From Planctomycetota bacterium (GTDB lineage Bacteria > Planctomycetota > UBA8108 > SXIK01), in the NCBI GenBank assembly GCA_965223265.1, contig OZ244999.1:768001-832000 (forward strand): a DNA stretch of 64,000 nt, read 5' to 3'. Numbering within the stretch: the stretch's first letter is position 1; each line of letters opens with the position of its first letter. Shown in pieces: positions 3,157-44,307 of the stretch. The notes below the pieces were generated by a model, which searched no databases, was not told the origin of the DNA, and saw only the letters and a program-made list of their open reading frames with translations. The position numbers and the translations under genes are program-made.

Positions 3157-3795
3157 CGGGAGTCGTTAGGTGCGAGAAAGGGTCGAGACGGAACTTGGTG
3201 CATCGGGAGAAGTGTGCCACACGGAGTACTTCGTCGTACGTCGCGCGCGATTCAACGGCGGCAGCCATCGATCGCGCCGCTCGGGCTGCGTTCGTCGCCG
3301 CAGCTCAAGCCGTGAAGTGCGCGGATTCACCTGGGGGCGGATCGGGTCAGCGGAAGCGTGCCCGTTCCGGGTCGAAAGTTGTGGGAGCGCTTACCGCACT
3401 CCCTTGATACAGGTACAGTTCAGGTGTCCGAGCGAGTCCATCGCAGCAATCCCTTCGCAGGAATCCATCGCGAAAATGATAGCGTTTTGCGAGTCGTTGG
3501 CGAGCGCGTGTGGCGTCGCCAAGAAACCCATCCTAGGTGGCGGACGGCGCGGATGCAATACGATTTGTGACCCCAGCGAGCAGAAACACACAGTCCCGCG
3601 GGCAGCGGAATGGCAGCTGGATGTACGGGGAGGCGGTCGATAGAATCCGGTTTTGCTTTTTTTACCTACCCAGCGGGCCGTCCAGATCGGCTCAAGGCCG
3701 CCCATCGACAACTCGCCGGACGCGCTCTACCTCCACAAGGCGGCGCTCGTTTCCGGCGTGCCAGACGGCGATGACCAAAACTTGAAGGAGGAACT

Positions 3796-4545: not shown

Positions 4546-5922
4546 CTATCCAGGAGGGGTGCTCAGCCAGGGAGGTTGAGCTGCCCTGCGAAAGTGTGCC
4601 TCCAGCTTCTCGAGCGAGATACGTCGAGGTCGGTCCGGTGTGCTTCGTTCGATCAGGGTGACTTCGCCGTGTTCCTGTTCCGCTCCGACTTCGACGACAC
4701 AGGCGACGCGATCCTCAAACGCGGCCCGCACTTTGAACCGCAGTCGCTCGCGGCGGCGCTCCAAGTCGGCTGTGACGCCGGCGTCCGCGAGCTTCTGAGT
4801 CAGTCGCTCGGCGGTTGAAAGAAACTCCGTGCGTGCTGGGATCACGCGCACCTGACGTGGCGAAAGCCAGAACGGTAGATTTCCACGCTGGCGTTCGAGC
4901 AGCCGCCAGAGGAGGTCGCGAGCATTCTGACCGAGTGCCGTTCGCTGCCTGAGTGGAGACTCCGTCTCGAGGCGGCGCGGAACCGGCGACGCAGGCCACA
5001 CCGCGACAACACCGCATTCACACGCGACGTCGAAGCGGTTGTAGATGCAGAAACTGAGCCGAAGCGGTGTGCCTGGGTCAACGAACTCGTCGTCAACCTC
5101 GGCGCCGAGGTCTCGAAGCACCGCTCTGACGCCGCCGACGCGAAGGCCTAAGCGGAGCGAGGTGACGTCCGGATACGTCAAATGAACCGCGAAGGGAAGC
5201 TCCAGCATCCGGTAGATCGCGGCGGCCGCTACCAGAGTCGTCGCGGCTGCCATCGGCTGCTGAGTTGGGCGATCGGCGTCGGATGCGGCGGTGTAATCAT
5301 CGATGGCCCTTTCGAGGCGCGCCACGATCAACTCACCAGCCTTGGAGAGATGCGCCAGTTCGTGGTCGTGGGCTGCGCCGATTTCGCGCGCACTGGGCTC
5401 GACGATTCTCAATCGAGCGCCAAGGTCGAATGCATCACGTTCTATCCCGGCCTCGTAGCGGGCGACAAGCAGCTGGAAGCGCCGCGCGTCCATGCTGGCG
5501 ACACCATCGATCTGTCGTCGCCCGCCACAGGGTGATCCTGTTGACTCGCCGGACAGGGATGATGCTTGGCGCCGCGAAGGCGTCGGGTCGAAGAGCTCAA
5601 GCTCAGCCGAAAAAGCGTCTCGTCCGGTAGCAAGGGCCTTTGCCGCTCGCCGTGCCAGCGACCGGATTTCACCAGGGAGAAAGTCGACTGCCTCGGCGGG
5701 TCGTATCGAAAAACCCTCGAACGGCAGGAGTCGCGGCCGCACAGTGCAGCCGCGGCAGCGCGGATCGAGTTCGGGAAGAACCCGCTCCAAAGCGCCGCAG
5801 AGTCTGACCATCTCCGCCGAGGAATCCGTCCTCCACGCTCCCTCGTGACCACAGCAGAACTGCCTTGGACTGACGAGCGCTGGCTCGCCCTCTGCGTGGC
5901 AAGCCGATGGGCGGTCGTTCAT
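4546..5922 (-). CDS. Degenerate threonyl-tRNA synthetase-like protein with C-terminal HGTP anticodon-binding domain
   Basis: C-terminal LLERQRGNLPFWLSPRQVRVIP...ERLRFKVRAAFEDRVACVVEVG resembles the ThrRS C-terminus. Catalytic motifs are eroded and there are no TGS or editing domains. Confidence 0.65.
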   Translation of the reverse strand: MNDRPSACHAEGEPALVSPRQFCCGHEGAWRTDSSAEMVRLCGALERVLPELDPRCRGCTVRPRLLPFEGFSIRPAEAVDFLPGEIRSLARRAAKALATGRDAFSAELELFDPTPSRRQASSLSGESTGSPCGGRRQIDGVASMDARRFQLLVARYEAGIERDAFDLGARLRIVEPSAREIGAAHDHELAHLSKAGELIVARLERAIDDYTAASDADRPTQQPMAAATTLVAAAAIYRMLELPFAVHLTYPDVTSLRLGLRVGGVRAVLRDLGAEVDDEFVDPGTPLRLSFCIYNRFDVACECGVVAVWPASPVPRRLETESPLRQRTALGQNARDLLWRLLERQRGNLPFWLSPRQVRVIPARTEFLSTAERLTQKLADAGVTADLERRRERLRFKVRAAFEDRVACVVEVGAEQEHGEVTLIERSTPDRPRRISLEKLEAHFRRAAQPPWLSTPPG

Positions 5923-5963
5923 TTTCGTGCTGTCTTCTTAGCAGCCTGTTCAGGCTAATCTAT

Positions 5964-6140
5964 CAGTCCGTTGAAAGAGTCACTCGGCCGAGAAACGGGC
6001 CTCTTCACGCTCGGCTCGACCGCGTCACTACTCACCACGATACCTTACAGAAGAGGGCTCGAAGATTATCTGCGTTTGCTGCACCCGATCTGGATGCGAA
6101 GAGACCAGTTTTCGACTCGAAGCACTCTTTCAACAGGCTG
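5964..6140 (-). mobile_element. MITE-like fold-back repeat, copy 1 (long-loop variant)
   Basis: CAGTCCGTTGAAAGAGT...ACTCTTTCAACAGGCTG, flanked by CTAT/CTAA; aligns with the copies at 11010, 13525, 24085 and 26807. Confidence 0.85.
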
Positions 6141-7208: not shown

Positions 7209-7579
7209 CCTCGCCTGTAAAGCCGCAACCGCAATGCGCCGCTCTTCGACGCTAGACCACCCTAAGTGCCTTCAGGGTCGTCCGATTTCGAACTCTGAAC
7301 GGCATTTATAGAACCGCGGCTCCGGGGCCTGGCGGCTACTCGGGAGGCCGAAAAATTGCTGGTGCGCGGCTTGACCTCGTTCCCTTGCTCCTGATAGCTT
7401 CCCTGTCCACAGGCCCGACGCGTGCGAGCCCTGGGTCGCGAAGCCTGCGCTTGAGACGTGTGCCTGCAGCAACTTCCCGACTTCTGATCTCATCTCATCA
7501 CCGATCACTGCGGTGTCAGCGTCTCCACCGCGTGCAGCCGGAGTGCGCTGCCCCAGCAATTCTAGCAAGGAGTCATCCC

Positions 7580-32880: not shown

Positions 32881-35216
32881 ATATGGCCGAAAGACTCCTC
32901 AGAGGGCTGTTTGGCGTCGACACAGATTCCGACGCTCGCCTCGAATGGCTTGGCGCGCCGTACGGACTCGGCGGGTGGTTCGCATTCTTCCTCGCCGCCG
33001 CGATCGTGACCATCATCGTAGTTGTCTATCGTCGCGAACGCCGTTTGCGTACGTGGCAGCGTCTGCTGCTTGCAACGCTCCGTCTCTTCGCTTTTGCGAT
33101 GGCTTGTTGGATCCTGCTTGATCCGCGTGTGGTCAGAGAGCTCAAGGTCGAGAGACGTGGACAGGCGATCGTACTCGTTGACACGTCGACAAGCATGGAT
33201 GAGCTCGATCCGTCTCAGCAGCAGCAACTCTCTGACAACCGTTCGGCGATCCAGCATTCGCGACTGCAGCAGGCTGTTGATGCGCTCGAGACGCAAGATA
33301 CGTTGTCAGAGCTCGCAGTGACCCATGACGTGCGCCTCTTTGGCTTCGATCGGTCGATCGGTCCGGTTACGGACATCGATGATCTCCTCGCTCCTCTTGA
33401 AGTCGCTTCGGCTGCCGACGCTGAGCCCGCCGTCTACAGCCGCGATGGAACACATCTTGGCAGTGCTATGCGAGCAGCTTTGGAGAGCGTTCAGGGTGAC
33501 CCTGTTGCGGGAGCTCTGATTCTCTCGGATGGTCGATCGACCGGAGGCGAACCGTGGGCTCGAGTCGTCGAAGAGTACGCTGTTCGTGGGGTGCCGGTCT
33601 TCACCGCTTGCCTCGGGGATGAACGGGTTGAGCGTAATCTTTCGGTGTCCAACTTCTCGGCGCCGGAGATCGCTTCTGTGGGATTCAGCATTCGTCTGGA
33701 CGCAGAGGTCCGGATTGTTGGGTTTCAAGGACAAAGGATTGACGTCACGCTCGAACGTGTTGACTCCAACCGCCGACGTCAGCAGATCGCGAAACGTGCG
33801 ATTGCAGTGGAGTCAAGCACGATCGTTGAGCGGTTCGCGTTCTACGACGCGGCCGAGGAAGAGGGAGACTACGAATACGTTCTGCGTCTGCCGCTGCACA
33901 ACAGAGAGAGCGAACACAGCGACAACTCGCGCCGCGTTCGCGTGAACATTCGCAACGAATCCATGCGGGTGTTTCTTCTCGCTGGCAGTTCGACCGCCGA
34001 GTATCGGCGACTCGTTCGATTCTTGACGCGTGATCGAGAGCTTGTGACTTCATGTTGGCTTGCTGGTGTCGGCGCGGATTACCCCCAAAGAGGCGATGCT
34101 CCGATCGGGAAGCCACCACGCCGCCTCTCAGAGCTCCGAGACTACGACGCTGTGATTCTCCTCGATCCGGCACCGAAGTCACTCGACGACGAGGTATTCA
34201 TGGCTGCGCTCAAAGAACTCGTTGTTGAGCACGGAACCGGGTTGGCCTACGTTGCCGGGGAGAACCATTTGCATCCTGGCGCCAATCGATACTTGGCGCC
34301 GCTGCTGCCGGTGGAGTTCGATGGCGGCGGCTGGGACTCGCGTGCGCCATACACCGCACTCTGGCGTCCGATCCTGACGCCGCGCGGACTCGAGCATCCG
34401 ATCTGCCGGCTCCGCGACGATGCTGAAGAGAACGCGTCGGTATGGCTTCGGCTTCCCGGATTCTATTTCTTCGCTGACGGCGCCAGGTTACGCCCGGCCG
34501 CCGTCGAGCTTGCGCGGCACCCTGGTGGAAGCGTTGCTGCTGCGATTCTCCGAGCCGGGAGCGGGTTGTCGATCTACCTCGGTACCGACGATCTCAACCG
34601 CTGGAGTCACGCGCGGCAACCCGGACTGCACGAGCGGTTCTGGTCTGGCGTGGTGCGATTCTTGGTTGCCGGGAAGCGGCTTGCTGGAAAGTTCGCGAGT
34701 GCTCTCTACGTTGACTACGACCGCTACGAAATCGGCGAACGAGTTGAGATTGAAGCGAGCGTTTTGGATGCTGAGAGGGTCCCGGTCGTGCGGTCGCAGA
34801 TGAGCGTTCAAGTGGTGCACGACGGTACGACGGGCATCTCTACGACGCTGTTGTCCCCCGTCTCCGGCCGTCCCGGTTGGTACCGTGGCGCTCTCGAGCC
34901 GAAGGCTGCAGGAGGCTACGCCCTCCGAATGGATGGGGGCGCCGAGGCGACGTTCCGCGTCGTCGTCTTGGCGAATGAGAGCGCCGATTTGACGCCGGAC
35001 CGTTATGCGATGAACGAAATAGCGCGTCGAAGCGGCGGCGAATCGCTGGCGCTCGATTCACTCAGCGAAGTGATTGATCGACTTCCCGACCGTTCGTTCA
35101 CCGAGGTCATCGGCCGCTCGCTCGTGTCGCTGTGGGATTCAGCGTGGGTCCTCGGCTTTCTCTGCTGCGCTTTGATCCTCGAGTGGATTCTCCGCAAACG
35201 ATGGAGTCTGAATTGA
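32877..35216 (+). CDS. vWA plus glutamine-amidotransferase-like domain membrane protein
   Basis: VLVDTSTSM (MIDAS), ILSDGRS, YDAVILLDP and C-terminal LWDS...EWILRKR. GTG overlaps the upstream stop. Confidence 0.85.
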   Translation: MNMAERLLRGLFGVDTDSDARLEWLGAPYGLGGWFAFFLAAAIVTIIVVVYRRERRLRTWQRLLLATLRLFAFAMACWILLDPRVVRELKVERRGQAIVLVDTSTSMDELDPSQQQQLSDNRSAIQHSRLQQAVDALETQDTLSELAVTHDVRLFGFDRSIGPVTDIDDLLAPLEVASAADAEPAVYSRDGTHLGSAMRAALESVQGDPVAGALILSDGRSTGGEPWARVVEEYAVRGVPVFTACLGDERVERNLSVSNFSAPEIASVGFSIRLDAEVRIVGFQGQRIDVTLERVDSNRRRQQIAKRAIAVESSTIVERFAFYDAAEEEGDYEYVLRLPLHNRESEHSDNSRRVRVNIRNESMRVFLLAGSSTAEYRRLVRFLTRDRELVTSCWLAGVGADYPQRGDAPIGKPPRRLSELRDYDAVILLDPAPKSLDDEVFMAALKELVVEHGTGLAYVAGENHLHPGANRYLAPLLPVEFDGGGWDSRAPYTALWRPILTPRGLEHPICRLRDDAEENASVWLRLPGFYFFADGARLRPAAVELARHPGGSVAAAILRAGSGLSIYLGTDDLNRWSHARQPGLHERFWSGVVRFLVAGKRLAGKFASALYVDYDRYEIGERVEIEASVLDAERVPVVRSQMSVQVVHDGTTGISTTLLSPVSGRPGWYRGALEPKAAGGYALRMDGGAEATFRVVVLANESADLTPDRYAMNEIARRSGGESLALDSLSEVIDRLPDRSFTEVIGRSLVSLWDSAWVLGFLCCALILEWILRKRWSLN

Positions 35217-37996
35217 TGGTGAAGCGGCCCAGGCGTCCTACCCTGCGCGATTCCCTCTTGGCTCTGAACCCAAGGATTCGTCGCTCTCTTCGGCAATTGG
35301 GGTGGTCGGAGATCGTCGTCGTCGTTTGCTGGGGATTCATTCTGTCGCTGGCTCTCGATCGCGTTTTGGAGTTGCCGTGGCTTCTTCGAGGCGGGATTTT
35401 TGTCGCACTCATCTTCGTGCTGACTGCTTTGGTGCGTCGAAGCCGGCGACGGTCGCGCGTCGCGGTGTCCACTGAGCAGTTGGCGACCGCCGCCGAGATT
35501 CGAGATCCGCGCTTGGAGGGTCGGCTCCTGAGCGCGCTCGAGTTGCCGAGGGAGTGGGCACGACAAAAAAAGAGCGGTGCATCAGCTCTGGAGATCGCGC
35601 TGACCGAGCGTGCGGTTCGTGAAATCGGCGTTGTCGCGAGAACTGTCGAGATCGACGGCTCTCTGGACCTGGCACGCGTGCGACGCTGGGTCGGTGCAGC
35701 TGCCCTCTCCGTCGTTGCCGCAGCAGCGGTCGCAGCTTGGCGGTCGAACGACCTCTCGGTTTGGTTTCATCGCGACGTTCTACTCCGGCAAGTCGACTGG
35801 CCGCGGCGAACTCACTACGTTCTATTTCCCGCACATGCCTCGGGCCAGTTCGAAGTGCACGTTGCTCGCCAACAAGATGTCGTTCTTCGGGGATGGGTTT
35901 TGGGCGTGCTACCAGAGGAGGTCCGCATTCAGCGCACGACGAGCGACGGTCGACCTGGCGGCGACCTGATCGTTCGCGTCGAGGGATACGAGCGCGTTCC
36001 CGACTCCGCGCTCCAGACTTGGCGTCAGGCGTTTTCCTCGAACGCCCCCGAGCCGGGAGCTCATGATCCGGCCCAGCGGGATCTGCGAGCAGGACTTAGC
36101 GGCTACCCCTTCGAAGTGTCGACCGGACGCCTCGACGAGTCGACGCAGTTCTTCGCGCGCGGTGGTGACAATCAGAGTCGCCGCATTGACGTCGTTTGCC
36201 ACGATCGACCGCGTCTTGAGGAGCGACGATACCAGCTGCGTTTCCCGAGTTATCTCAACATGCCGCCCGAGAATGTGGAGAATGTGGTTGGGGACCTCGT
36301 CGTCCCCGATGGAACTCATGTCGATGGCCTCTTCAGAGCCAGCACTCCGCTCGAGAGCGCTGAAGTCACGTTTGGTGACTCGGAGAGCCAGCCCCTAGAC
36401 GCGACGGTCGAGGAAGACACCGTTCGTTTCGGTTGGACGAGCAGTCGTACAGGAGTGCTTGAGGTCCGCGTCATGAGCCAGCCGTGGGGGATCAGCGCAT
36501 ATCCTTCCTTTCGACAGCCCGTGATCGTGGAGCCTGATCGCGCGCCAGACGTCACCCTGGAAATCGACAGCGAGTATCTCAGCGTCGCTCCCGACGCATC
36601 CATCGCGCTTTCGTCGACGGCCAGCGACGACCACGGCGTGTCCAGCTGGATCGTGCGCCGCTGGATCGGCGCCGCTTCAGAGCAGTCATGGAGCCGCGCG
36701 GAGAGCCAGCCGGACAATGAGACGGCCATCGACCTCTCACTCGTGAAAGACACAGCCACCGGCATCGACGCCAACGGCAGCCCGACTCACATTCGGGTGC
36801 AAGGAACCTATCGCGGCGAAATTGACCTGCGCCCACTCAGTCTCGCCCCAGGCGACCGGATCGTGCTGCAGGCAGCCGCGGCAGACAATCGTGAGCCCGA
36901 GCCTCAGTGGTCGGAGTCCCAGCACGAAGTCGTCACGGTCGTCGAAGCGGCGACGATCGTGCAGCAAACCGATCTGGCGCGCGTCGAGATCCAAGAAAAA
37001 CTGCTAGAACTCGCAGCCGTGGAAGAGCGCCTTGCCGGAAGCGTGGCTGGAGACCGTTCGGGGTGGGAGACAGAGGCGGAGACAGAGACGGAGACGGAGG
37101 CGGAGACAGAGGCGGAGACAGAGACGGAGACGGAGGCGGAGACAGAGACGGAGACAGACACAGAGACAGAGACAGAGACGGAGACAGAGGCGGAGACGGA
37201 GGCGGAGACAGAGGCGGAGACAGAGACGGAGACGGAGGCGGAGACAGAGACGGAGACAGACACAGAGACAGAGACAGAGACGGAGACAGAGGCGGAGACG
37301 GAGACAGATAATGGCTTCGCCTCCGGACCAGCCTCTGATTCTGCTTCTGGGTCCTCTGATTCTGCCTCCGCCGCTGGCTCTGCCTCGGATTCTGCCTCTG
37401 GTTCCTCTGATTCCGCCTCTGCTTCTGCCTCTGCCTCTGATTCTGCTTCTGGCTCTGCCTCCGCCTCCGCCTCTGCCTCTGCCTCTGATTCTGCTTCTGG
37501 CTCTGCCTCTGCCTCTGCCTCTGATTCTGCTTCTGGCTCCGCCTCCGCCTCTTCTCCTCCTGCCCCGAACCCTTCCAAGCGCCTTGCCGAGCGACAGCGT
37601 GCCGTCGCGGCGGAGGCGAGGGCTTTGAACGAGCGGTTCAAGAAGATGCGGCGAGCTCTGGAGGCGAATCGACTTCTGGATGAGGCGACGGCGGCGAAGT
37701 ATGAGCACGGGGTGGCGGAGCCGCTCGACGAGTTGGTGGAGGAGCGTTTGCCGCGTTCTGCTGAAGAGATCGAGGCGCTTTCAAAGTCTCGGGCCGCGGC
37801 GGAGGATGCGCGTGGGGTTGAGGAGGATTTGAAGGCGATGGCTGCTGACTTGCGGGCGATCGCGGAGAATCTTGCGGGGAGCGGTAGTGAGCGTGAGCTG
37901 ATCCACCGCCTTGAGATGATCCTCGAGTTGCAGCGGCAGGCGCGAGAGGTGACTGATGAGCTGCTGCGTCGGCCGCGGGAGGGGAATGGTCGATGA
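35216..37996 (+). CDS. DUF4175-like membrane-anchored protein with a low-complexity ET/EA and SA/SD insert
   Basis: Three N-terminal transmembrane segments, PSYL, PDRAP, ASDDHGV and coiled-coil tail. ATG overlaps the upstream TGA. Confidence 0.8.
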   Translation: MVKRPRRPTLRDSLLALNPRIRRSLRQLGWSEIVVVVCWGFILSLALDRVLELPWLLRGGIFVALIFVLTALVRRSRRRSRVAVSTEQLATAAEIRDPRLEGRLLSALELPREWARQKKSGASALEIALTERAVREIGVVARTVEIDGSLDLARVRRWVGAAALSVVAAAAVAAWRSNDLSVWFHRDVLLRQVDWPRRTHYVLFPAHASGQFEVHVARQQDVVLRGWVLGVLPEEVRIQRTTSDGRPGGDLIVRVEGYERVPDSALQTWRQAFSSNAPEPGAHDPAQRDLRAGLSGYPFEVSTGRLDESTQFFARGGDNQSRRIDVVCHDRPRLEERRYQLRFPSYLNMPPENVENVVGDLVVPDGTHVDGLFRASTPLESAEVTFGDSESQPLDATVEEDTVRFGWTSSRTGVLEVRVMSQPWGISAYPSFRQPVIVEPDRAPDVTLEIDSEYLSVAPDASIALSSTASDDHGVSSWIVRRWIGAASEQSWSRAESQPDNETAIDLSLVKDTATGIDANGSPTHIRVQGTYRGEIDLRPLSLAPGDRIVLQAAAADNREPEPQWSESQHEVVTVVEAATIVQQTDLARVEIQEKLLELAAVEERLAGSVAGDRSGWETEAETETETEAETEAETETETEAETETETDTETETETETEAETEAETEAETETETEAETETETDTETETETETEAETETDNGFASGPASDSASGSSDSASAAGSASDSASGSSDSASASASASDSASGSASASASASASDSASGSASASASDSASGSASASSPPAPNPSKRLAERQRAVAAEARALNERFKKMRRALEANRLLDEATAAKYEHGVAEPLDELVEERLPRSAEEIEALSKSRAAAEDARGVEEDLKAMAADLRAIAENLAGSGSERELIHRLEMILELQRQAREVTDELLRRPREGNGR
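37067..37306 (+). repeat. 40 tandem hexamers (GAGACA/GAGACG/GAGGCG/GACACA) containing an exact 102-nt tandem duplication
   Basis: Units 37097-37198 and 37199-37300 are identical; the tract encodes 80 aa of (E/D)(T/A). Confidence 0.92.
37331..37555 (+). repeat. Pyrimidine-rich hexamer tract (GCCTCT/GCCTCC/GATTCT/GCTTCT) encoding SA/SD/SG repeats
   Basis: Directly visible period-6 repeats. Confidence 0.9.
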
Positions 37997-38084
37997 AGAG
38001 GGCCTGCAGGGGTTCGATGTGGCGACTGGGAACGATTCTGCTTTTCTTGACTGCCGTGGTGACTGACAATTGAGGCGTGATCCA

Positions 38085-39773
38085 ATGAAGTCACGATTCA
38101 TTTCCAACATTGGTGATTGGCTCTGGATTGTCGTGGCTCTGGGCTGTTTGCCCTTCGCGAGTCGCGCACTTTTCGGCCAGAGCGACGTAGCGAACCTCGA
38201 CGCGGCGAAGCGCCTGCAGCGCGAAGTTGAACGGCGCTACCGAGGTCTCCGATCCGCGATCAGCGGGCTGATCAGCATGACGGAAGACGTCGATCGCGCT
38301 GAGCGTCTTGGATTGGCGCTCCGGCGCTCAGACGAGCTCGAGTTGCCGCGGCGGCTGCGTCGGGTGCGCCGCTTACTGGCGAGCCGGCGATTGCAATCAG
38401 CTGCTGACGAGGAGGCTTTGCTCGAGAAAGATCTTGAGCGCGTCCTCAAGTTGCTGCGCGGCGAAGACGACGCCGAGGCGGCGCGGCGCGATAAGGAAGA
38501 ATTGAAGGAGCTGCGCGAAGAGCTGGAGCGTCTCGAGCGACTCAAGGCAAAACAGGAGGAGGAGAGGAATGCGACGGAAGAGCTGACTGCGGGCGAGGCG
38601 CCATCCAGCGGTCAAGCGCTGGAGGAGCGACTACGCCAGCAGCGTTCACTGAAGCGCGACGCCGACGAGCTCTCCAAGAGGCTAAAGCGCAAAGCGGCGA
38701 GTCGACAGCGCGGAACGCCCAGCTCCGGCGGGCAGCGTGGGAATTCAGGACAACGCGGCTCCATGGGGAATGCCCAAGAGGCGATGGCGAACGCTGCGCA
38801 GCGCATGCGTGGAGCGGCGATGCGACTGCGGGCTCGCAACGTTCGCGGCGCCCGACAAGATCAAGACGAGGCATTGACGCAGCTTAAGAGAGCCGCGGAA
38901 GAGCTTGAGAATGAGATCGCGCGGCGGGCGGCTGACGCGCAGGCGAGTGTGATCGGGAAGATCGTCCTTAAGCTCTTCGCGCTCGTGACGGCCCAGGAGG
39001 CGCTGCGGCACGAGACGAACGAGCTTCATGCGGCGGACGATATGGAGCCTGCACAACTCCGCCGCGAAGCGCGTCGACTGGCTCGCGAAGAACGTCTTCT
39101 CAAAGTCGATGTGGACGACGTGCAGCGTCTTGTGGCGAGCAGTGAATCCACCGTCGTGGCTCCACGACTTATGGAACGGGCGCAGTCCGACCTGGAGAAT
39201 GCGGCGACGTTGCTTGCAGCTGGTGAGGCAGGGGACGTCGTGCAGTTCTTGCAAGCGGACGTGGAAAGTTCGTTGCGGGCCGTCCTCGAGGCTTTCAAAT
39301 TGGACATGGATAGCGGCGGTGGTGGTGGCGGTGGCGGCGGCGGTGGAGGAGGTGGCGGAAAAATGAAGAAGGAGAAGATCCCACCGGCCGCAGAGGTGCG
39401 TTTGATCTTGGCCGAACAGCGCCGCTTGTTCGATCGCACTCAGCGTCTTCGCAAGCTCGGGCTGCTGGGTTCTGGAGAGAAGCCTGGCGAGACTCAGCCC
39501 GTGAATCCAGCCCAGCTCGAATTGCTGCGGCAGGGGGAGCGACTTGCCGACAACGAGGCGGCGTTGGCCCGGCTTACCGAAGAGTTCCTCCGCGCGTACC
39601 CGAAGGTGGATGCATTTCTTCTTGGCGCGGAGGCGCCAACCGCGTCGCCGCAATTCGATCGAGACACCTTGCCTGACTTGGATGGTCGCGAGGGAGAGCA
39701 GAGCGTCGAGTCCAGCGACACTCGAAAGCCAGACCCGGAAGCGCGGCAAGTGCCGCCGAAGGAGGAGCCATGA
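38085..39773 (+). CDS. Hypothetical exported coiled-coil protein with a 15-Gly tract
   Basis: Signal-like N-terminus, long heptad regions and ..AEVRLI..EQ motif; co-oriented in the MoxR operon. Confidence 0.75.
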   Translation: MKSRFISNIGDWLWIVVALGCLPFASRALFGQSDVANLDAAKRLQREVERRYRGLRSAISGLISMTEDVDRAERLGLALRRSDELELPRRLRRVRRLLASRRLQSAADEEALLEKDLERVLKLLRGEDDAEAARRDKEELKELREELERLERLKAKQEEERNATEELTAGEAPSSGQALEERLRQQRSLKRDADELSKRLKRKAASRQRGTPSSGGQRGNSGQRGSMGNAQEAMANAAQRMRGAAMRLRARNVRGARQDQDEALTQLKRAAEELENEIARRAADAQASVIGKIVLKLFALVTAQEALRHETNELHAADDMEPAQLRREARRLAREERLLKVDVDDVQRLVASSESTVVAPRLMERAQSDLENAATLLAAGEAGDVVQFLQADVESSLRAVLEAFKLDMDSGGGGGGGGGGGGGGGKMKKEKIPPAAEVRLILAEQRRLFDRTQRLRKLGLLGSGEKPGETQPVNPAQLELLRQGERLADNEAALARLTEEFLRAYPKVDAFLLGAEAPTASPQFDRDTLPDLDGREGEQSVESSDTRKPDPEARQVPPKEEP

Positions 39774-41044
39774 GTCGCGTAGGAGTCCGCGTAGGTTTTG
39801 TTCGCCATCGTCGGCCGGTGCTCTCGAGAGTCGCCGCCGCCGTCGCATTCGTTTTCGTCGGCGTCATCGCTGCGGACGAGCCTCGACGGGATCGTGATTC
39901 TGTGACTCCCCGGGTGGATCCCGCTGCCGAATCGACCGAAGACGCTCCCGGCTCACTCGACGACGCGGCGCGTCCTGGTGGATCCGTCGGTACGCCTCGC
40001 TCGACGACAGATTTGTGGGACCGTTTTCTCGATTCCCTGCGTGCATCTGGGCGAGGCGACTTGATCGACGAGCTCTCGCTAAGTGATCGTGCTCGGCTCG
40101 ACTTTGAGCGCGGCGATCTCGTCCGGGCGGTACTGGCGCGCTTCACCCCAGAGCTTCGCAAGTTGCATGCGCTGTTTGCGGGTGATCGTGAGGCGTCGTC
40201 GTTGACGGTCGAAGAGTTGGACGTCGCGATCGCACAAGCTCGTCGGCTGCAGGAGGTCGAAAACCGATTCATCCGCTATTACGGTGACTATTACCGCGCC
40301 TCTTTGGAGCTCGAGATGGCTGACCGTAACTCCTCAGCCGATGCCGGTGATCGTCGCACTTTCGCTCGGGCTCTTCTTGAAGCGCTGGCAGTGGCGGATG
40401 ACTTCTTGCCAGTCGAACTGGCGCACCGCCGCCTGTCGGAGCTCTTCGTCGACTTGAACGAGACGACGCTCGCCATCTTGGAGCTCCAGCTCTTTCTCGT
40501 GGAACTCCCGGAGTCTCGCGCGAGCGAGCGTGCCGAGGCGGAGACGGCGCTCGCCCGGCTCAGAGAGAAGCCGAAGCATCCTGGGCCCGTCAGGGAAACG
40601 AGCCGCCGTATGAGGACAATTGCGGAGAGGTTGAGCGACAGCGATGTCGGTGCCGAAACCCAGCGTGAGGAAGCCGGTGTTGTCGCGGTACTCGACCGCG
40701 TCGCGCGCCTCCTCGAAAAAGTCGACGAAGCTGGCGGGCCGCGCCGCGCCTGCAGTGGAAGCGCGTGCAAACGGGGGAAGTTGGCACCGGGCTCGAAAGC
40801 TGCCAAGGGGCGCGGGCAGGGAACGGCGAATGCGCGTGGCGAAATCACCGACCATGCCAGTGGTCAGGCCGGTGGCAACGCCCTCAGGGAGGAGCCCGAG
40901 CGGCGCGACCGCGAACGCTGGGGCGAAGTGAACGAGGCCGATGTCGCCCGTTCTCTGCGCGAGGTTTGGGAAAAGCTGCCCGGTCGCTACCGGCGCGTCA
41001 TTTCCGACTACTTCCGCGACATCTCCGGTTTGGCTGACGAGTGA
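39770..41044 (+). CDS. Hypothetical exported protein, last gene of the MoxR operon
   Basis: ATGA overlap with the previous gene and GGAG upstream; C-terminal WG.....LPGRYRRVISDYFR motif. Confidence 0.75.
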   Translation: MSRVGVRVGFVRHRRPVLSRVAAAVAFVFVGVIAADEPRRDRDSVTPRVDPAAESTEDAPGSLDDAARPGGSVGTPRSTTDLWDRFLDSLRASGRGDLIDELSLSDRARLDFERGDLVRAVLARFTPELRKLHALFAGDREASSLTVEELDVAIAQARRLQEVENRFIRYYGDYYRASLELEMADRNSSADAGDRRTFARALLEALAVADDFLPVELAHRRLSELFVDLNETTLAILELQLFLVELPESRASERAEAETALARLREKPKHPGPVRETSRRMRTIAERLSDSDVGAETQREEAGVVAVLDRVARLLEKVDEAGGPRRACSGSACKRGKLAPGSKAAKGRGQGTANARGEITDHASGQAGGNALREEPERRDRERWGEVNEADVARSLREVWEKLPGRYRRVISDYFRDISGLADE

Positions 41045-41060
41045 TTGTTGGCACCGGTCC

Positions 41061-41095
41061 AAAAGCGCGTCATTCTGACGGTTTGACGCGCTTTT
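41061..41095. terminator. Bidirectional intrinsic-terminator-like hairpin
   Basis: AAAAGCGCGTCA-N11-TGACGCGCTTTT, a perfect 12-bp inverted repeat between convergent genes. Confidence 0.5.
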
Positions 41096-41354
41096 CGAGG
41101 TACCTCACAGTGTCGAGAAAACTTGAGCCTCGCACGGCCATGACCAGGTCGATCGGGTTGAAGTTCCGCTTGCAGCGAAAGCATCGCGCCAGATTCGTCT
41201 TCGTATTTGTAGCCGTGTCGAACTCTCCACAGCAGGGGCACAGGAAGCGTAGCCAACCGCCGCGGGTTTTCGTCGCCAGTTCCAGAGCGTGAATGGTCGC
41301 GACGATGTCCACTTCGTTTCGCAACCGTCGAAGGTGTTCTGCTGCGATTCTCAC
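41070..41354 (-). CDS. Stand-alone CHC2/primase-type zinc-finger protein
   Basis: 94 aa: VDIV..I...RFLCPCC...NLARCFRC..NFNPIDLVM......FLDTV..L, resembling the DnaG zinc-binding domain. GTG overlaps the istB stop. Confidence 0.8.
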   Translation of the reverse strand: MRIAAEHLRRLRNEVDIVATIHALELATKTRGGWLRFLCPCCGEFDTATNTKTNLARCFRCKRNFNPIDLVMAVRGSSFLDTVRYLEKRVKPSE

Positions 41355-41710
41355 GACTTCGTCCGCCTCTTTTTGCTCGCACGCGCCCTTCGTTCCTTCT
41401 CCCGCTGGTGTTTTCGCTCCTCAGACTCCTTGAGGCGGTAGGATTCCGCATCGATTTCCACCACCTCGCAGCGGTGAACAAGCCGGTCGACGAGGGTGAC
41501 AACCACGCCGGAGTTTGGGAACACATCGTTCCAGTCCTGGAAGCTCTTGTTGGTCGTCAGCACGATCGGCTTTTCCTGCTGGTAGCGTCGAGTGACAAGT
41601 TCAAAGAGTAAATCGGCGTGGTCTGCCGAGGTGGAGAGATACCCGAGCTCATCGATTACGAGTAGTCGCGGGCGACAATAGTGCCGTAGTCGTCGCTCCA
41701 GCGCCGAGGT
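41351..41710 (-). pseudogene. istB: IstB-like ATP-binding protein, C-terminal fragment (Walker A missing)
   Basis: LLVIDELGYL (Walker B), LLFELVTRRY, IVLTTNK.F..W...F and VDRLVHRCEVVEIDAESYR. Confidence 0.9.
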
Positions 41711-42135
41711 AGGAAGCCAGGTCGTACAAACGCCGAAGCGAAGCGGCCACAGAAACGGCACCGAAGCCTGCTCACCGGACGTTCAAAGCGCCCTGATGGC
41801 TCCGCGGTAGTGATGCTCGTCGTCTTCTCAGGCTCCGTTCGCTCCTGCGACCCGAAGATGTGTGCACCAGAAACCGTGGCGGTGGAACCCTGATGAGTCA
41901 CACCGAGATGTCGACGCCGCCAGCGACGCTGTCGACGGGTGTGGTTACGAGCACCAAGCGTGCTTTGCTGATAGCGTCGAGCTGCTCGCCGGATCGACTC
42001 GCATCGTGCAGCGTGCGAGCAGGCGCGAGAGCAGTATCGCTGTCCACGGTCGCAGCGACTGCAGATGACGACTTGCGCGTGGCAGCGTGAACACTGGTAG
42101 AGTCGAACGGAGCGTCCCTGGGCCGCAGCCACCAT
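41656..42135 (-). CDS. Cys-rich basic zinc-finger protein of the IS21-like element (3' end altered by the deletion junction)
   Basis: CSRC..QVVICSRCDRGQRYCSRAC...RYQ...G..NH..RQRR.R...VTHQGS...CRFCG. Confidence 0.75.
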   Translation of the reverse strand: MVAAAQGRSVRLYQCSRCHAQVVICSRCDRGQRYCSRACSHAARCESIRRAARRYQQSTLGARNHTRRQRRWRRRHLGVTHQGSTATVSGAHIFGSQERTEPEKTTSITTAEPSGRFERPVSRLRCRFCGRFASAFVRPGFLPRRWSDDYGTIVARDYS

Positions 42136-42441
42136 CGCACAGATCGGAAGGGTTTTGCGACCGAGACGATACTGCCAGAGTGGGGAGCCCCGGAGAGCGT
42201 CGAGACCTTGAAGGCGCGCCTTAGTAGTAACGCAACGGCCTTACCGAAAGAGAACGGAGTCGGGATGGTCGCTTCTGGTGAGTTGCCTCTACCCAAGCTA
42301 CGTATCCAGACGACGTTCTCGCCGGCTGAGGAGCCGGTCCGTCCCGGATCGCAGCGTGACCCTCTTGCGCGCTGCGAAGATAGCGTACTGACTCGAGGCT
42401 CTCCACTCCTGACTTCGACTAATCTGCCAGAGCTTGTTCGA

Positions 42442-44307
42442 TCAGTTCGTGCCGATTTCTTCTCGCAGGAAAGAGGAAGGTTTGTGCCTTCTTCTTATCG
42501 ATTCACCGGACCGAAACCGGAGTACGGTCGGAAGCTGCTTGCTGTAACGATCCGCCTGCCCCTCGGTCAACTTGGGGAGAATCTGCTCCTCTAGATTCAA
42601 CTGAGCCTCTACAAACTGCTCCATTACGCCCGGTGCTAGTCCGAGTCCCAACCTGGAGTTCGTTCCGTCCCGTTCGTCCTCCGGGAGGCTATAAACGATG
42701 TCCCGTGCGACGTCGATGAACTCATCCACAAAGGGGAGAATGGATTCGACCTGCCCGTCGTCCAGTGCATAGATTCGTCGGAGATCCCTTACCACGACTT
42801 GTGGGGCGTCCTCTTGATCAACACCGTATGTATAGTGAGACGCTCCGCCGTCGAACAGGTGCTCTGAAAACTCGCTTAGCGCCGGCCAGTATTCAAGTTG
42901 ATCGTCCGAAAGGATCTCTTCGACGCCGACCCAGGTTTCCATGATGGTCGAGCGTCGTACGCCGTATCGCTCCAACGGAGTCAGCCCGTCGACCGCAACG
43001 TCTGCGGTGGACGGTAACCGCTCGTTGAGTTTCTTTTGTTGCTTCTTCGTCAGCCCGAGCGATTCAGACACGATCGCTCGGATCAGTTGTCCGCGGATCG
43101 AATCGTCGAAGAAAGGACGTGGCGAAGCCGCTTTGATTCGTGCTTCGAATTGGCTGATCCCATTGCGAAATTTTGACATCCGCTCGCTCGTCTCCGCGGA
43201 GGGTGGGCCCTCCTCACGGATTTGCAGCGTGTCGATATTCTCGGCGAACAACACGGCAAGACCGGAAAGATCGATTAGCCCAGCGATTTCTCGTGAGGTC
43301 TCCTCCGTGCCGTCCTTCGTCGCGGTCTCAGAGGTCTTTCCAGCGGATTCAATCGCTAAGCGCTGGTCTGAGATGGTTTTTTCTAAGTTGCGGATCGTCG
43401 TACGACTTCGCTGAAGCTGGGATCGGGTGTCCTTGTACTGTCTTCGTAGAGTCTCCAGTTCGCTTCGCAGCCGCGAGGCTTCCCGAGTTGCCCTCTCGTC
43501 GTGTGTGGAGTCGTTATTCATCGTCAGTACGCTCACCCCAACGCTGCATACCGCAACGACGGCGATTGCGATTCCTACTGCTTTCTTCGTCACGATTGCT
43601 CCTCCTAAGAGTGTTGCAGAGCCATGAATCGTCGATGACGTTGTGAGCGTCTTGGCGACCGCCGCCGTAGTTCTTCCGACCGGCAGACTGCCGAGCAAGA
43701 GGAGGGTGGTTTGCCGTCCCTTCTTCTTCCACGTGCGAGTCGACGGAAGCATGTCGCGAAGTTGAGCTTCGAATCGGCGCCAGAGTCGATTGCGAAGCAG
43801 GTCTCTTCCCGTCTGTAGCCTCTTCTTAGCGGTAGCACTTGTCGTGCCTTGCGCTTTTGCGACTTGGCGGACGGATTCCCCTTCGTAGTAGAAGAGAAAG
43901 ACCGCTTCACGAACGTTCGCGGGTAGGCGTTGCACTTCGCTCCACAGTCGGTCGTTCAGTTCTCGAATCTCGCTTCGGTTCGCCGCATCCGGCTCAGCGG
44001 ATGGAGTCTCCTGGGTGAGTGATGCAGGGGGTGAACGTCGTCGTAACTCCTTGCGCGCTACGTTCCTGACGATGGTTAGAAACCACGGTCTAAAGCTCGT
44101 ATTTCGCTCCAGACGGTCAAGGTTCTTGAGGGCCAACAATGTTGCTTCCTGCACCACATCCTGGGGGTCGGCTGCGTTTGAGATGATGGCATGAGCTACC
44201 GCAAACGCCTTTTTTTGGTGGCGTACGACGAGTTCTTCGATAGAGCGGGGATTGCCTGCCCGCGCCTGTTGGACAAGTCTGGCGTCCGAAATGAGTGTGG
44301 TGATCAC
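42442..44307 (-). CDS. ECF sigma-70 factor with transmembrane helix and long C-terminal extension
   Basis: Region 2: D..LV..AR.G...DVVQEA.L.A..NL..L....FRPWFLTIVRN. Region 4: LP...REAVFLFYYEG.S...VA. Then a transmembrane segment, a coiled coil and LTxxQ-like motifs. Confidence 0.92.
   Translation of the reverse strand: MITTLISDARLVQQARAGNPRSIEELVVRHQKKAFAVAHAIISNAADPQDVVQEATLLALKNLDRLERNTSFRPWFLTIVRNVARKELRRRSPPASLTQETPSAEPDAANRSEIRELNDRLWSEVQRLPANVREAVFLFYYEGESVRQVAKAQGTTSATAKKRLQTGRDLLRNRLWRRFEAQLRDMLPSTRTWKKKGRQTTLLLLGSLPVGRTTAAVAKTLTTSSTIHGSATLLGGAIVTKKAVGIAIAVVAVCSVGVSVLTMNNDSTHDERATREASRLRSELETLRRQYKDTRSQLQRSRTTIRNLEKTISDQRLAIESAGKTSETATKDGTEETSREIAGLIDLSGLAVLFAENIDTLQIREEGPPSAETSERMSKFRNGISQFEARIKAASPRPFFDDSIRGQLIRAIVSESLGLTKKQQKKLNERLPSTADVAVDGLTPLERYGVRRSTIMETWVGVEEILSDDQLEYWPALSEFSEHLFDGGASHYTYGVDQEDAPQVVVRDLRRIYALDDGQVESILPFVDEFIDVARDIVYSLPEDERDGTNSRLGLGLAPGVMEQFVEAQLNLEEQILPKLTEGQADRYSKQLPTVLRFRSGESIRRRHKPSSFLREEIGTN

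Follow-up and report, generated by a model that had tools for sequence, protein, structure and literature searches.

The IS21 family is a structural model for systems that combine a transposase with an AAA+ ATPase, and its canonical members (IS21, IS5376) consist of istA and istB. We analyzed a 64,000-nucleotide (nt) stretch of DNA from a Planctomycetota bacterium (assembly GCA_965223265.1, contig OZ244999.1, positions 768,001 to 832,000; hereafter the window), in which a remnant of an IS21-type element occupies positions 41046-42135 of the minus strand and retains the end of istB together with two small open reading frames (ORFs) for cysteine-rich proteins. The product of the 159-amino-acid (aa) ORF is called ZnF here, and that of the 94-aa ORF is called CHC2, CHC2-like or ZBD-like. 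A preliminary description of this locus had suggested a four-gene IS21 subfamily with the order ZnF-istA-istB-CHC2. Comparison with relatives gives us high confidence in the IS21 identity and four-gene architecture of the subfamily to which this element belongs, and we consider it likely that the window copy itself is an immobile, internally deleted member of this distinct subfamily.

An internally deleted IS21-family copy

The features of the window copy are as follows.

41046..41081, minus strand: right terminal inverted repeat of IS21 type, recognized by matches to the repeats of relatives
41058..41098, no strand: hairpin with 15-nt arms (41058-41072 and 41084-41098) that are 93 % complementary
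41070..41354, minus strand: CHC2-like gene, 94 aa, with a match to PF01807
41351..41708, minus strand: C-terminal remnant of istB (PF01695); the called ORF is 41351..41761 (136 aa), with homology only from about 41708
41705..41715, minus strand: approximate deletion junction joining the end of the ZnF gene to mid-istB, where ZnF homology stops and istB homology starts
41656..42135, minus strand: ZnF gene, 159 aa, without a Pfam family; eight Cys are invariant
42136..42441, minus strand: expected place of the left end, upstream of ZnF, without an inverted repeat or DNA similarity to relatives

Read outside-in from 41046 on the plus strand, the right repeat agrees at 28 of 36 positions with the right repeat of a Gemmatimonadota relative (locus L046) and at 24 of 36 with both repeats of a relative from the same order (locus L125), and blastn aligned the right end of the window copy (41088-41045) with L046:3332-3375 at 79.5 % identity over 44 nt (E 1.7e-4). 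Its outer end at 41046 lies 2 nt past the stop of the plus-strand neighbor gene 39770..41044. The CHC2-like gene ends with a stop codon (41070-41072) inside the repeat, and the istB stop and the CHC2-like start share the GTGA at 41351-41354; both of these details of the preliminary description, which placed the 94-aa gene inside the element and translationally coupled it to istB, are correct. The hairpin shares sequence with both the right repeat and the CHC2-like gene (at its 3' end), and could represent a terminator or else a second, inverted version of the repeat core.

The remainder of istB covers positions 144-236 of the 238 in PF01695 (IstB_IS21; 99.8 bits, cut-off 24.1), and the truncation, which took the Walker A half, leaves its score against the NCBIfam model IS21_help_AAA (104.3) under the cut-off of 200 set for whole proteins. 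No istA was found in the ORF list or by a Pfam scan of the window proteins. DNA similarity to relatives is confined to four stretches, namely ZnF (42106-41878), istB from about 41708 down, the CHC2-like gene, and 41088-41045. Because relatives place istA between ZnF and istB, these alignments indicate that one deletion took all of istA and approximately 140 5' codons of istB. Near 41705-41715 similarity to ZnF gives way to similarity to istB. The final ~15 codons of the ZnF ORF are therefore istB DNA read in a different frame across the deletion junction, native ZnF sequence reaching to about residue 143-145.

The left repeat was not found in 42100-42700 by an ungapped scan with the repeats of ten relatives (best 18/36), nor by an inverted-repeat scan or local alignments, and the repeat core of the second copy in this genome gave 0 matches as a pattern. 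A search of a 2.9-kb region against 30 related genomes for an empty site matched transposon parts only and not the flanks. Having lost istA, the 5' portion of istB and its left end, the window copy is unable to move by itself. Both small ORFs are nevertheless uninterrupted despite the loss of istA, half of istB and the left end, as would be expected if the host had kept them for its own use. We regard such domestication as very improbable, since the tail of ZnF is a frame-shifted fusion product, none of the 30 related genomes searched shares the locus, and short ORFs may stay open by chance after a recent deletion.

The CHC2-like and ZnF proteins

The CHC2-like protein matches PF01807 (Zn_ribbon_DnaG) with 27.6 bits (cut-off 24.9), and a profile built from 55 sequences of its family matches the zinc-binding domain of Bacillus stearothermophilus DnaG (PDB 1d0q) end to end (E 2.1e-5). 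Its AlphaFold2 model (predicted local distance difference test, pLDDT, 92.1) was aligned by Foldseek to 1d0q_A with a template modeling (TM) score of 0.73 and a probability of 1.00, with no other match below E 0.001. The likeness to the DnaG zinc ribbon that had been noticed earlier therefore extends over the whole domain and to its fold. There are also clear differences from DnaG: the CHC2-like proteins are stand-alone and of 90-120 aa, lack TOPRIM and helicase-binding domains, and are encoded by transposons. Specifically, no TOPRIM domain was detected, the match to TIGR01391 covering only positions 2-90 of 414 (22.1 bits, cut-off 283.6). No TniQ match was obtained in Pfam (E<=1). The ligands are four Cys (C39, C42, C58, C61) rather than a Cys-His-Cys-Cys set, the second being Cys (CPxC) in 55/55 sequences where the aligned residue of 1d0q is His. 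A full search with a hidden Markov model (HMM) returned 468 cluster representatives at E<=1e-10, of which the top 150 are 96-245 aa long with the domain mostly N-terminal, which points to a family of small proteins rather than fragments of primases. A complex prediction for the IstB of L125 with its own ZBD-like protein, both supplied as alignments, scored 0.00 and counts neither for nor against binding.

ZnF is a basic protein with the motif C15xxC18-x6-C25xxC28-x6-C35xxxC39 and a distal C126xxC129. The ORF and motif that had been reported upstream of the istB remnant were confirmed, and all eight Cys are invariant in an alignment of 31 sequences, in which RRYQ and VTHQGS motifs are also conserved; eight Cys would suffice for two presumed Zn(Cys4) sites. 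ZnF matches no family in Pfam or NCBIfam, and TniQ and DUF6431 are among the Pfam families without a match at E<=1. The AlphaFold2 model (mean pLDDT 72.2, approximately 90 or more for residues 11-70) consists of a small beta-hairpin zinc knuckle, two long arginine-rich helices, a disordered linker and a short C-terminal element with the distal CxxC. Among solved structures the best sequence match was to a ribosomal protein (E 0.088) and the best fold match had E 2.7, and in the ESM Atlas 30 clusters were found, all of hypothetical proteins with no Pfam family in common. A word-indexed protein search identified 105 homologs, all Pfam-less, those with names being 'hypothetical protein' and most being 138-150 aa long.

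The idea that these ORFs are not real genes, one being a decayed primase fragment and the other a chance ORF, could draw on the narrow excess of the 94-aa ORF over its Pfam cut-off, on the lack of a family for ZnF, and on plasmid records, in which no gene is annotated under the ZnF match in 18 of the 25 records listed, in a gene table that is incomplete. We find this scarcely credible. Chance ORFs are excluded by the 105 ZnF homologs, with their eight invariant Cys, and by the 468 CHC2-like representatives, of which the 150 listed are all small; in addition, both models are confident over the conserved parts and the positions of the genes in elements are constant across phyla. Conservation of the sequences already contradicts this idea.

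Relatives, linkage and distribution

Intact members of the subfamily carry the ZnF gene, istA (the DDE transposase), istB (the AAA+ helper) and a variable small fourth gene, overlapping one another between repeats of 35-58 bp that start 5'-TGT. They resemble canonical IS21 in the DDE transposase IstA of the relatives, the AAA+ protein IstB, the overlapping genes and the TGT...ACA repeats, and differ from it in the conserved Cys8 gene before istA and the small gene after istB. The order ZnF-istA-istB-CHC2 was found intact inside inverted repeats at three loci, and at a fourth, in the window genome, in a disrupted copy.

L125, genome of the same order as the window genome: repeats 2485-2520 and 5937-5972
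L046, Gemmatimonadota assembly: repeats 37-71 and 3340-3374
L137, metagenome contig: repeats 1394-1434 and 4723-4763
L019, second copy in the window genome, disrupted: 58-bp repeats 752-809 and 7482-7539 around ZnF, istA, istB and CHC2

The IstA of L125 matches NF033546 with 264.8 bits (cut-off 160), istA is likewise present in L046 and L137, and the relatives have full-length IstB. In L046 and L019 the repeat begins 2 nt past the CHC2 stop. The proposed four-gene subfamily is thus real, with two corrections: what the window contains is a dead remnant that lacks istA, and CHC2 is not the usual fourth gene.

Linkage of ZnF to IS21 was evaluated with a metagenome scan, which gave at least 600 stretches and at least 563 confirmed matches, the best 80 loci being examined. 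Where 400 nt or more follow ZnF (73 loci), istA lies no more than 150 nt downstream in 66, further off in 5 and is not seen in 2, so that istA was found in 71 of 73. In the 45 loci with at least 250 nt following istB, the gene after istB is a small acidic ORF ('o4') in 32, CHC2 in 2 and AAA_25 alone in 1, while 10 gave no tblastn match; of these ten, two have an o4-like ORF and one a ~95-aa ORF like that of a 10-copy element described below. The two with CHC2 are L137 and L178, the latter with an AAA_25 gene between istB and CHC2. The o4 ORF is 63-72 aa long, acidic and Pfam-less, is annotated 'hypothetical protein' (for example L128:7263-7454 and L129:7185-7403), and, in the majority of ZnF-type IS21 elements, has an overlap with the stop of istB. 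The fourth-gene slot can therefore hold the small acidic ORF, the ~95-aa ORF, CHC2, or AAA_25 with CHC2. Members of the ~95-aa family, which has no Pfam match, were observed next to the ZBD-like gene or replacing it at L020:5351-5644, L082:7690-7983, L181:3106-3387 and L122:1703-1939. ZnF homologs also occur in 34 plasmid records (Burkholderia 15, Rhizobium 4, others), and in two of these, from Methylotuvimicrobium and Burkholderia, ZnF-istA-istB is followed by a 63- or 72-aa ORF across the istB stop. Together with the number of metagenome matches, these records point to a large ZnF-IS21 clade with members in Burkholderia, Rhizobium and other plasmids.

An IstB phylogeny, which the preliminary description had named as a check on the subfamily, agrees with this grouping. 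In an IQ-TREE analysis of 56 rows (excluding duplicates, one IstB with a stop codon, and IstBs that have fewer than 200 aa or are cut by a contig end), all 45 ZnF-linked IstBs form one clade on a long branch (support 100/99). The seven rows with both ZnF and CHC2, the window fragment included, fall in one set of eight (98/88), of which the eighth is L181 with its ~95-aa ORF in place of CHC2. A clade of its own (99/95) unites four ParB-type IS21 elements that carry CHC2.

For CHC2, a scan confirmed 240 loci in species-representative genomes; tblastn sorted the best 80 of these, which come from 43 assemblies, into the following gene orders.

DUF6431-like gene, rve/Mu-like transposase, AAA_22 ATPase, CHC2: 26 loci in 17 assemblies
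Zn protein, CHC2, ParB-like gene, 555-590-aa protein, AAA_22 ATPase: 41 loci in 13 assemblies
IS21 (istA and istB) with CHC2: 6 loci in 6 assemblies
CHC2 without assigned architecture: 7 loci in 7 assemblies

Two non-IS21 backbones therefore account for 67 of the 80 loci and IS21 for 6. The linkage to istA and istB anticipated for both proteins holds for ZnF and does not hold for CHC2, whose homologs are mostly outside IS21. The first-gene protein of the other backbones matches DUF6431 (PF20020) above the cut-off of 26.6 in two of six cases and just under it in the other four, the L020 protein scoring 21.1. In the ParB-gene backbone the Zn protein is ZnF at 14 loci, 'ZnF3' at 19 and DUF6431-like at 7, and one locus has no sequence before CHC2. 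Homology between ZnF and the ZnF3 first-gene proteins of this second backbone was considered and rejected (hhalign probability 1.2 %, E 0.044), and the two are positional analogues only. The 555-590-aa protein has no match in Pfam, NCBIfam or PDB sequences and is a putative transposase, as judged from where it lies, from how many copies of the element there are and from DDE-like motifs seen by eye; in another assembly, thirteen copies of this backbone have one left end in common, ~215 nt ahead of the gene for the Zn protein. ParB-like genes are also part of a second IS21 lineage, in which the orders ZnF3-like, ParB-like, istA, istB, CHC2 (L117) and ZnF, CHC2, ParB-like, istA, istB (L072) occur. 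Among the seven unassigned loci, three have CHC2 directly before three tyrosine-recombinase genes and one has an ATPase fragment. The ZBD-like gene overlaps and precedes such a trio at L050:7980-11400 and also in L048 and L068, a fourth context for the gene, and in L068 its reading frame continues into the first tyrosine recombinase. In summary, CHC2 homologs lie nearly always inside transposons with an ATPase and a known or putative transposase, and the gene is portable, being common to three transposon backbones, IS21 and two others that show signs of recent activity.

The window genome contains one such element, 4065 bp long, in ten copies (7 at 100 % and 3 at 99.975 % identity); its target duplications are perfect and of 6 bp, and it looks recently active. 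An example is L020:2028-6092 (G000:C1:8374027-8378091). Its genes are, in order, DUF6431-like, rve/Mu-C transposase, AAA_22 ATPase, a 97-aa ORF and, as the last gene, the ZBD-like gene, which stops ~125 nt short of the right end; the ends are TGCTGAG... and ...CTTAGCA. This element resembles the Mu and Tn552-like transposase and ATPase pairs in its rve and Mu-transposase-C protein and its AAA_22 ATPase, and bears the same ZBD-like gene as the IS21 members; it differs from those pairs in its added DUF6431-like first gene and its ZBD-like and 97-aa last genes.

No intact ZnF-istA-istB-CHC2 element was found in the window genome. In the second copy, istA is split by the insertion of a serine recombinase of 691 aa (L019:2234-4309). 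Starting ~235 nt past its right repeat (L019:7774-10036 onward) are at least two overlapping tyrosine-recombinase genes, possibly a recombinase trio, and the whole L019 block interrupts the AAA_22 ATPase gene of another element (L019:447-764, resuming at L038:3-542). At L022:10320-11357 a third fragment of ZnF occurs within an IS256-like ORF, in which it is fused to what was identified by eye as the C-terminal portion of an IS256-like transposase. The fusion probably marks an insertion into another ZnF-IS21 relic. Matches to the repeat core were seen near it at G000:C1:6100342, 6111574 and 6071122. Elsewhere in the window, a 954-aa ORF (35132..37996) contains long Glu-Thr/Glu-Ala and Ser-Ala/Ser-Asp low-complexity runs (36900-37700), and a 567-aa ORF (38070..39773) contains a run of ~15 Gly (39026-39439).

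Possible roles of the two proteins

We infer that both zinc proteins are transposition cofactors and not passengers, and they are probably DNA-binding cofactors for regulation or target choice. The arginine-rich helical hairpin of ZnF, held by two presumed Zn(Cys4) sites, would make it an element-specific nucleic-acid binder produced along with IstA, and it may control transposase expression or assembly at the element ends or leader, as the small first-gene proteins of IS1 and IS3 do. This role is favored because ZnF is always first, overlaps the istA start, tracks one IstB clade and looks like a nucleic-acid binder. IS1 InsA and IS3 OrfA are small first-gene DNA-binding regulators of insertion sequences; like ZnF they are small, basic and partly zinc-binding products of a 5' gene that overlaps the transposase gene, and ZnF differs in that neither its sequence nor its fold could be related to theirs, with no match in Pfam, PDB sequences or PDB folds, and in having no apparent frameshift fusion to the transposase.

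The ZBD-like protein may be an adaptor that connects the complex of ATPase and target with a DNA feature, for example single-stranded or fork DNA, and so could act as a target selector or as a hand-over factor to replication or repair. In most architectures its gene lies directly after, and overlapping, that of a P-loop ATPase, and it overlaps the ATPase stop in three contexts, IstB, AAA_22 and AAA_25. The last of these is a RepA/DnaB-like gene directly 5' of the ZBD-like gene with overlapping start and stop (L038:521-1779, L055 and L178:3275-4566); in L178 the pair follows istB within a ZnF-IS21 element, and in L149 the AAA_25 gene was seen alone. The adaptor role is favored because the ZBD-like gene overlaps ATPase stops and sits in a slot of alternating small genes, recalling the selectors of Tn7. 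The Tn7 selectors (TniQ/TnsD, TnsE and TnsF with the AAA+ protein TnsC) offer an analogy in that small or zinc-finger proteins accompany a transposition ATPase in an exchangeable slot. They differ in that neither ZnF nor the CHC2-like protein has a TniQ match in Pfam and in their backbones, which here are IS21 and rve/Mu-like with AAA_22, and targeting by the present proteins is conjectural. We put forward this particular division of labor between ZnF and the ZBD-like protein tentatively, as a possible arrangement that may well prove wrong.

The main rival to the adaptor role is a hand-over to replication or repair, in which the ZBD-like protein would finish transposition through the host machinery at the strand-transfer product, recruiting or mimicking primase contacts to process gaps or forks, with ZnF as a plain repressor. 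The primase zinc-binding domain fold would suit this, as would the AAA_25 context of four loci (L038, L055, L178 and L149, with AAA_25 alone in the last), the occurrence of the gene on elements with a Mu-like transposase and ATPase, and the lack of orientation or site bias in the ten copies. However, the ZBD-like protein has no primase catalytic domain, contact with a host protein is purely conjectural, and IS21 is thought to move by cut-and-paste, which needs short gap repair only. We consider this account unlikely.

Alternatively, both small genes might be passengers that help the element indirectly, by counter-defense, host manipulation or addiction, outside the transposition reaction. The variable fourth-gene slot and the presence of the same ZBD gene on unrelated backbones and beside tyrosine-recombinase trios form the kind of pattern that cargo-like shuffling would give. 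The constant place of ZnF as the first gene, overlapping the istA start and tracking one IstB clade, argues against this, as do the overlap of the ZBD gene with the ATPase stop codon in three contexts and the economy of these elements, which at ~3.4-4.1 kb hold nothing else and show the tight coupling typical of core machinery. A passenger role is accordingly, in our judgment, quite unlikely.

Several observations weigh against the proposal that the two proteins are transposition cofactors acting at the element and its target. Because most ZnF-type IS21 elements are without CHC2, the two proteins need not work together, and in the ParB-gene backbone CHC2 comes after the Zn-protein gene and not after the ATPase gene. 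The zinc-binding domain of bacterial DnaG is not known as its helicase-binding part, which makes the analogy with an ATPase adaptor loose. By cumulative GC skew (origin ~7.96 Mb, terminus ~3.56 Mb), seven copies of the 10-copy element are co-directional with replication and three opposed to it, which is not significant, and its 6-bp target duplications have no obvious common motif; orientation and target sites of this element do not favor strict fork- or strand-directed targeting. The loci and tree rows came from searches seeded with ZnF or CHC2, and with only six IstBs without ZnF the ordinary diversity of IS21 is barely sampled.

Full-text literature searches did not find zinc-finger, CHC2, DUF6431 or ParB-like accessory genes described in IS21, and curated notes (ISfinder, TnPedia, supplements) may exist. 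A figure legend in a 2023 survey lists selectors for Tn7 and states that for IS21 none had been reported (PMC10293859), and a part of the text of PMC12486865 mentions neither zinc nor additional ORFs.

A broader reading, speculative and in our opinion improbable, is that the ZBD-like protein represents a new and portable class of target selectors or adaptors for IstB, AAA_22 (MuB-TniB-like) and AAA_25 ATPases that steers elements to single-stranded or fork DNA, and that the Cys8 ZnF is an unrecognized core component of a very large IS21 clade. If this were true, IS21-like elements would resemble Tn7 in having a modular slot for selectors. Should the ZnF and ZBD-like proteins control where or when these elements insert, this would explain target choice and could provide small portable parts for engineered transposition. 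Profiles of ZnF and CHC2 would also allow both genes to be named in annotation. The wider pattern, a very common ZnF-IS21 clade together with a portable gene resembling the primase zinc ribbon, is the interesting part of these findings for the biology of the family.

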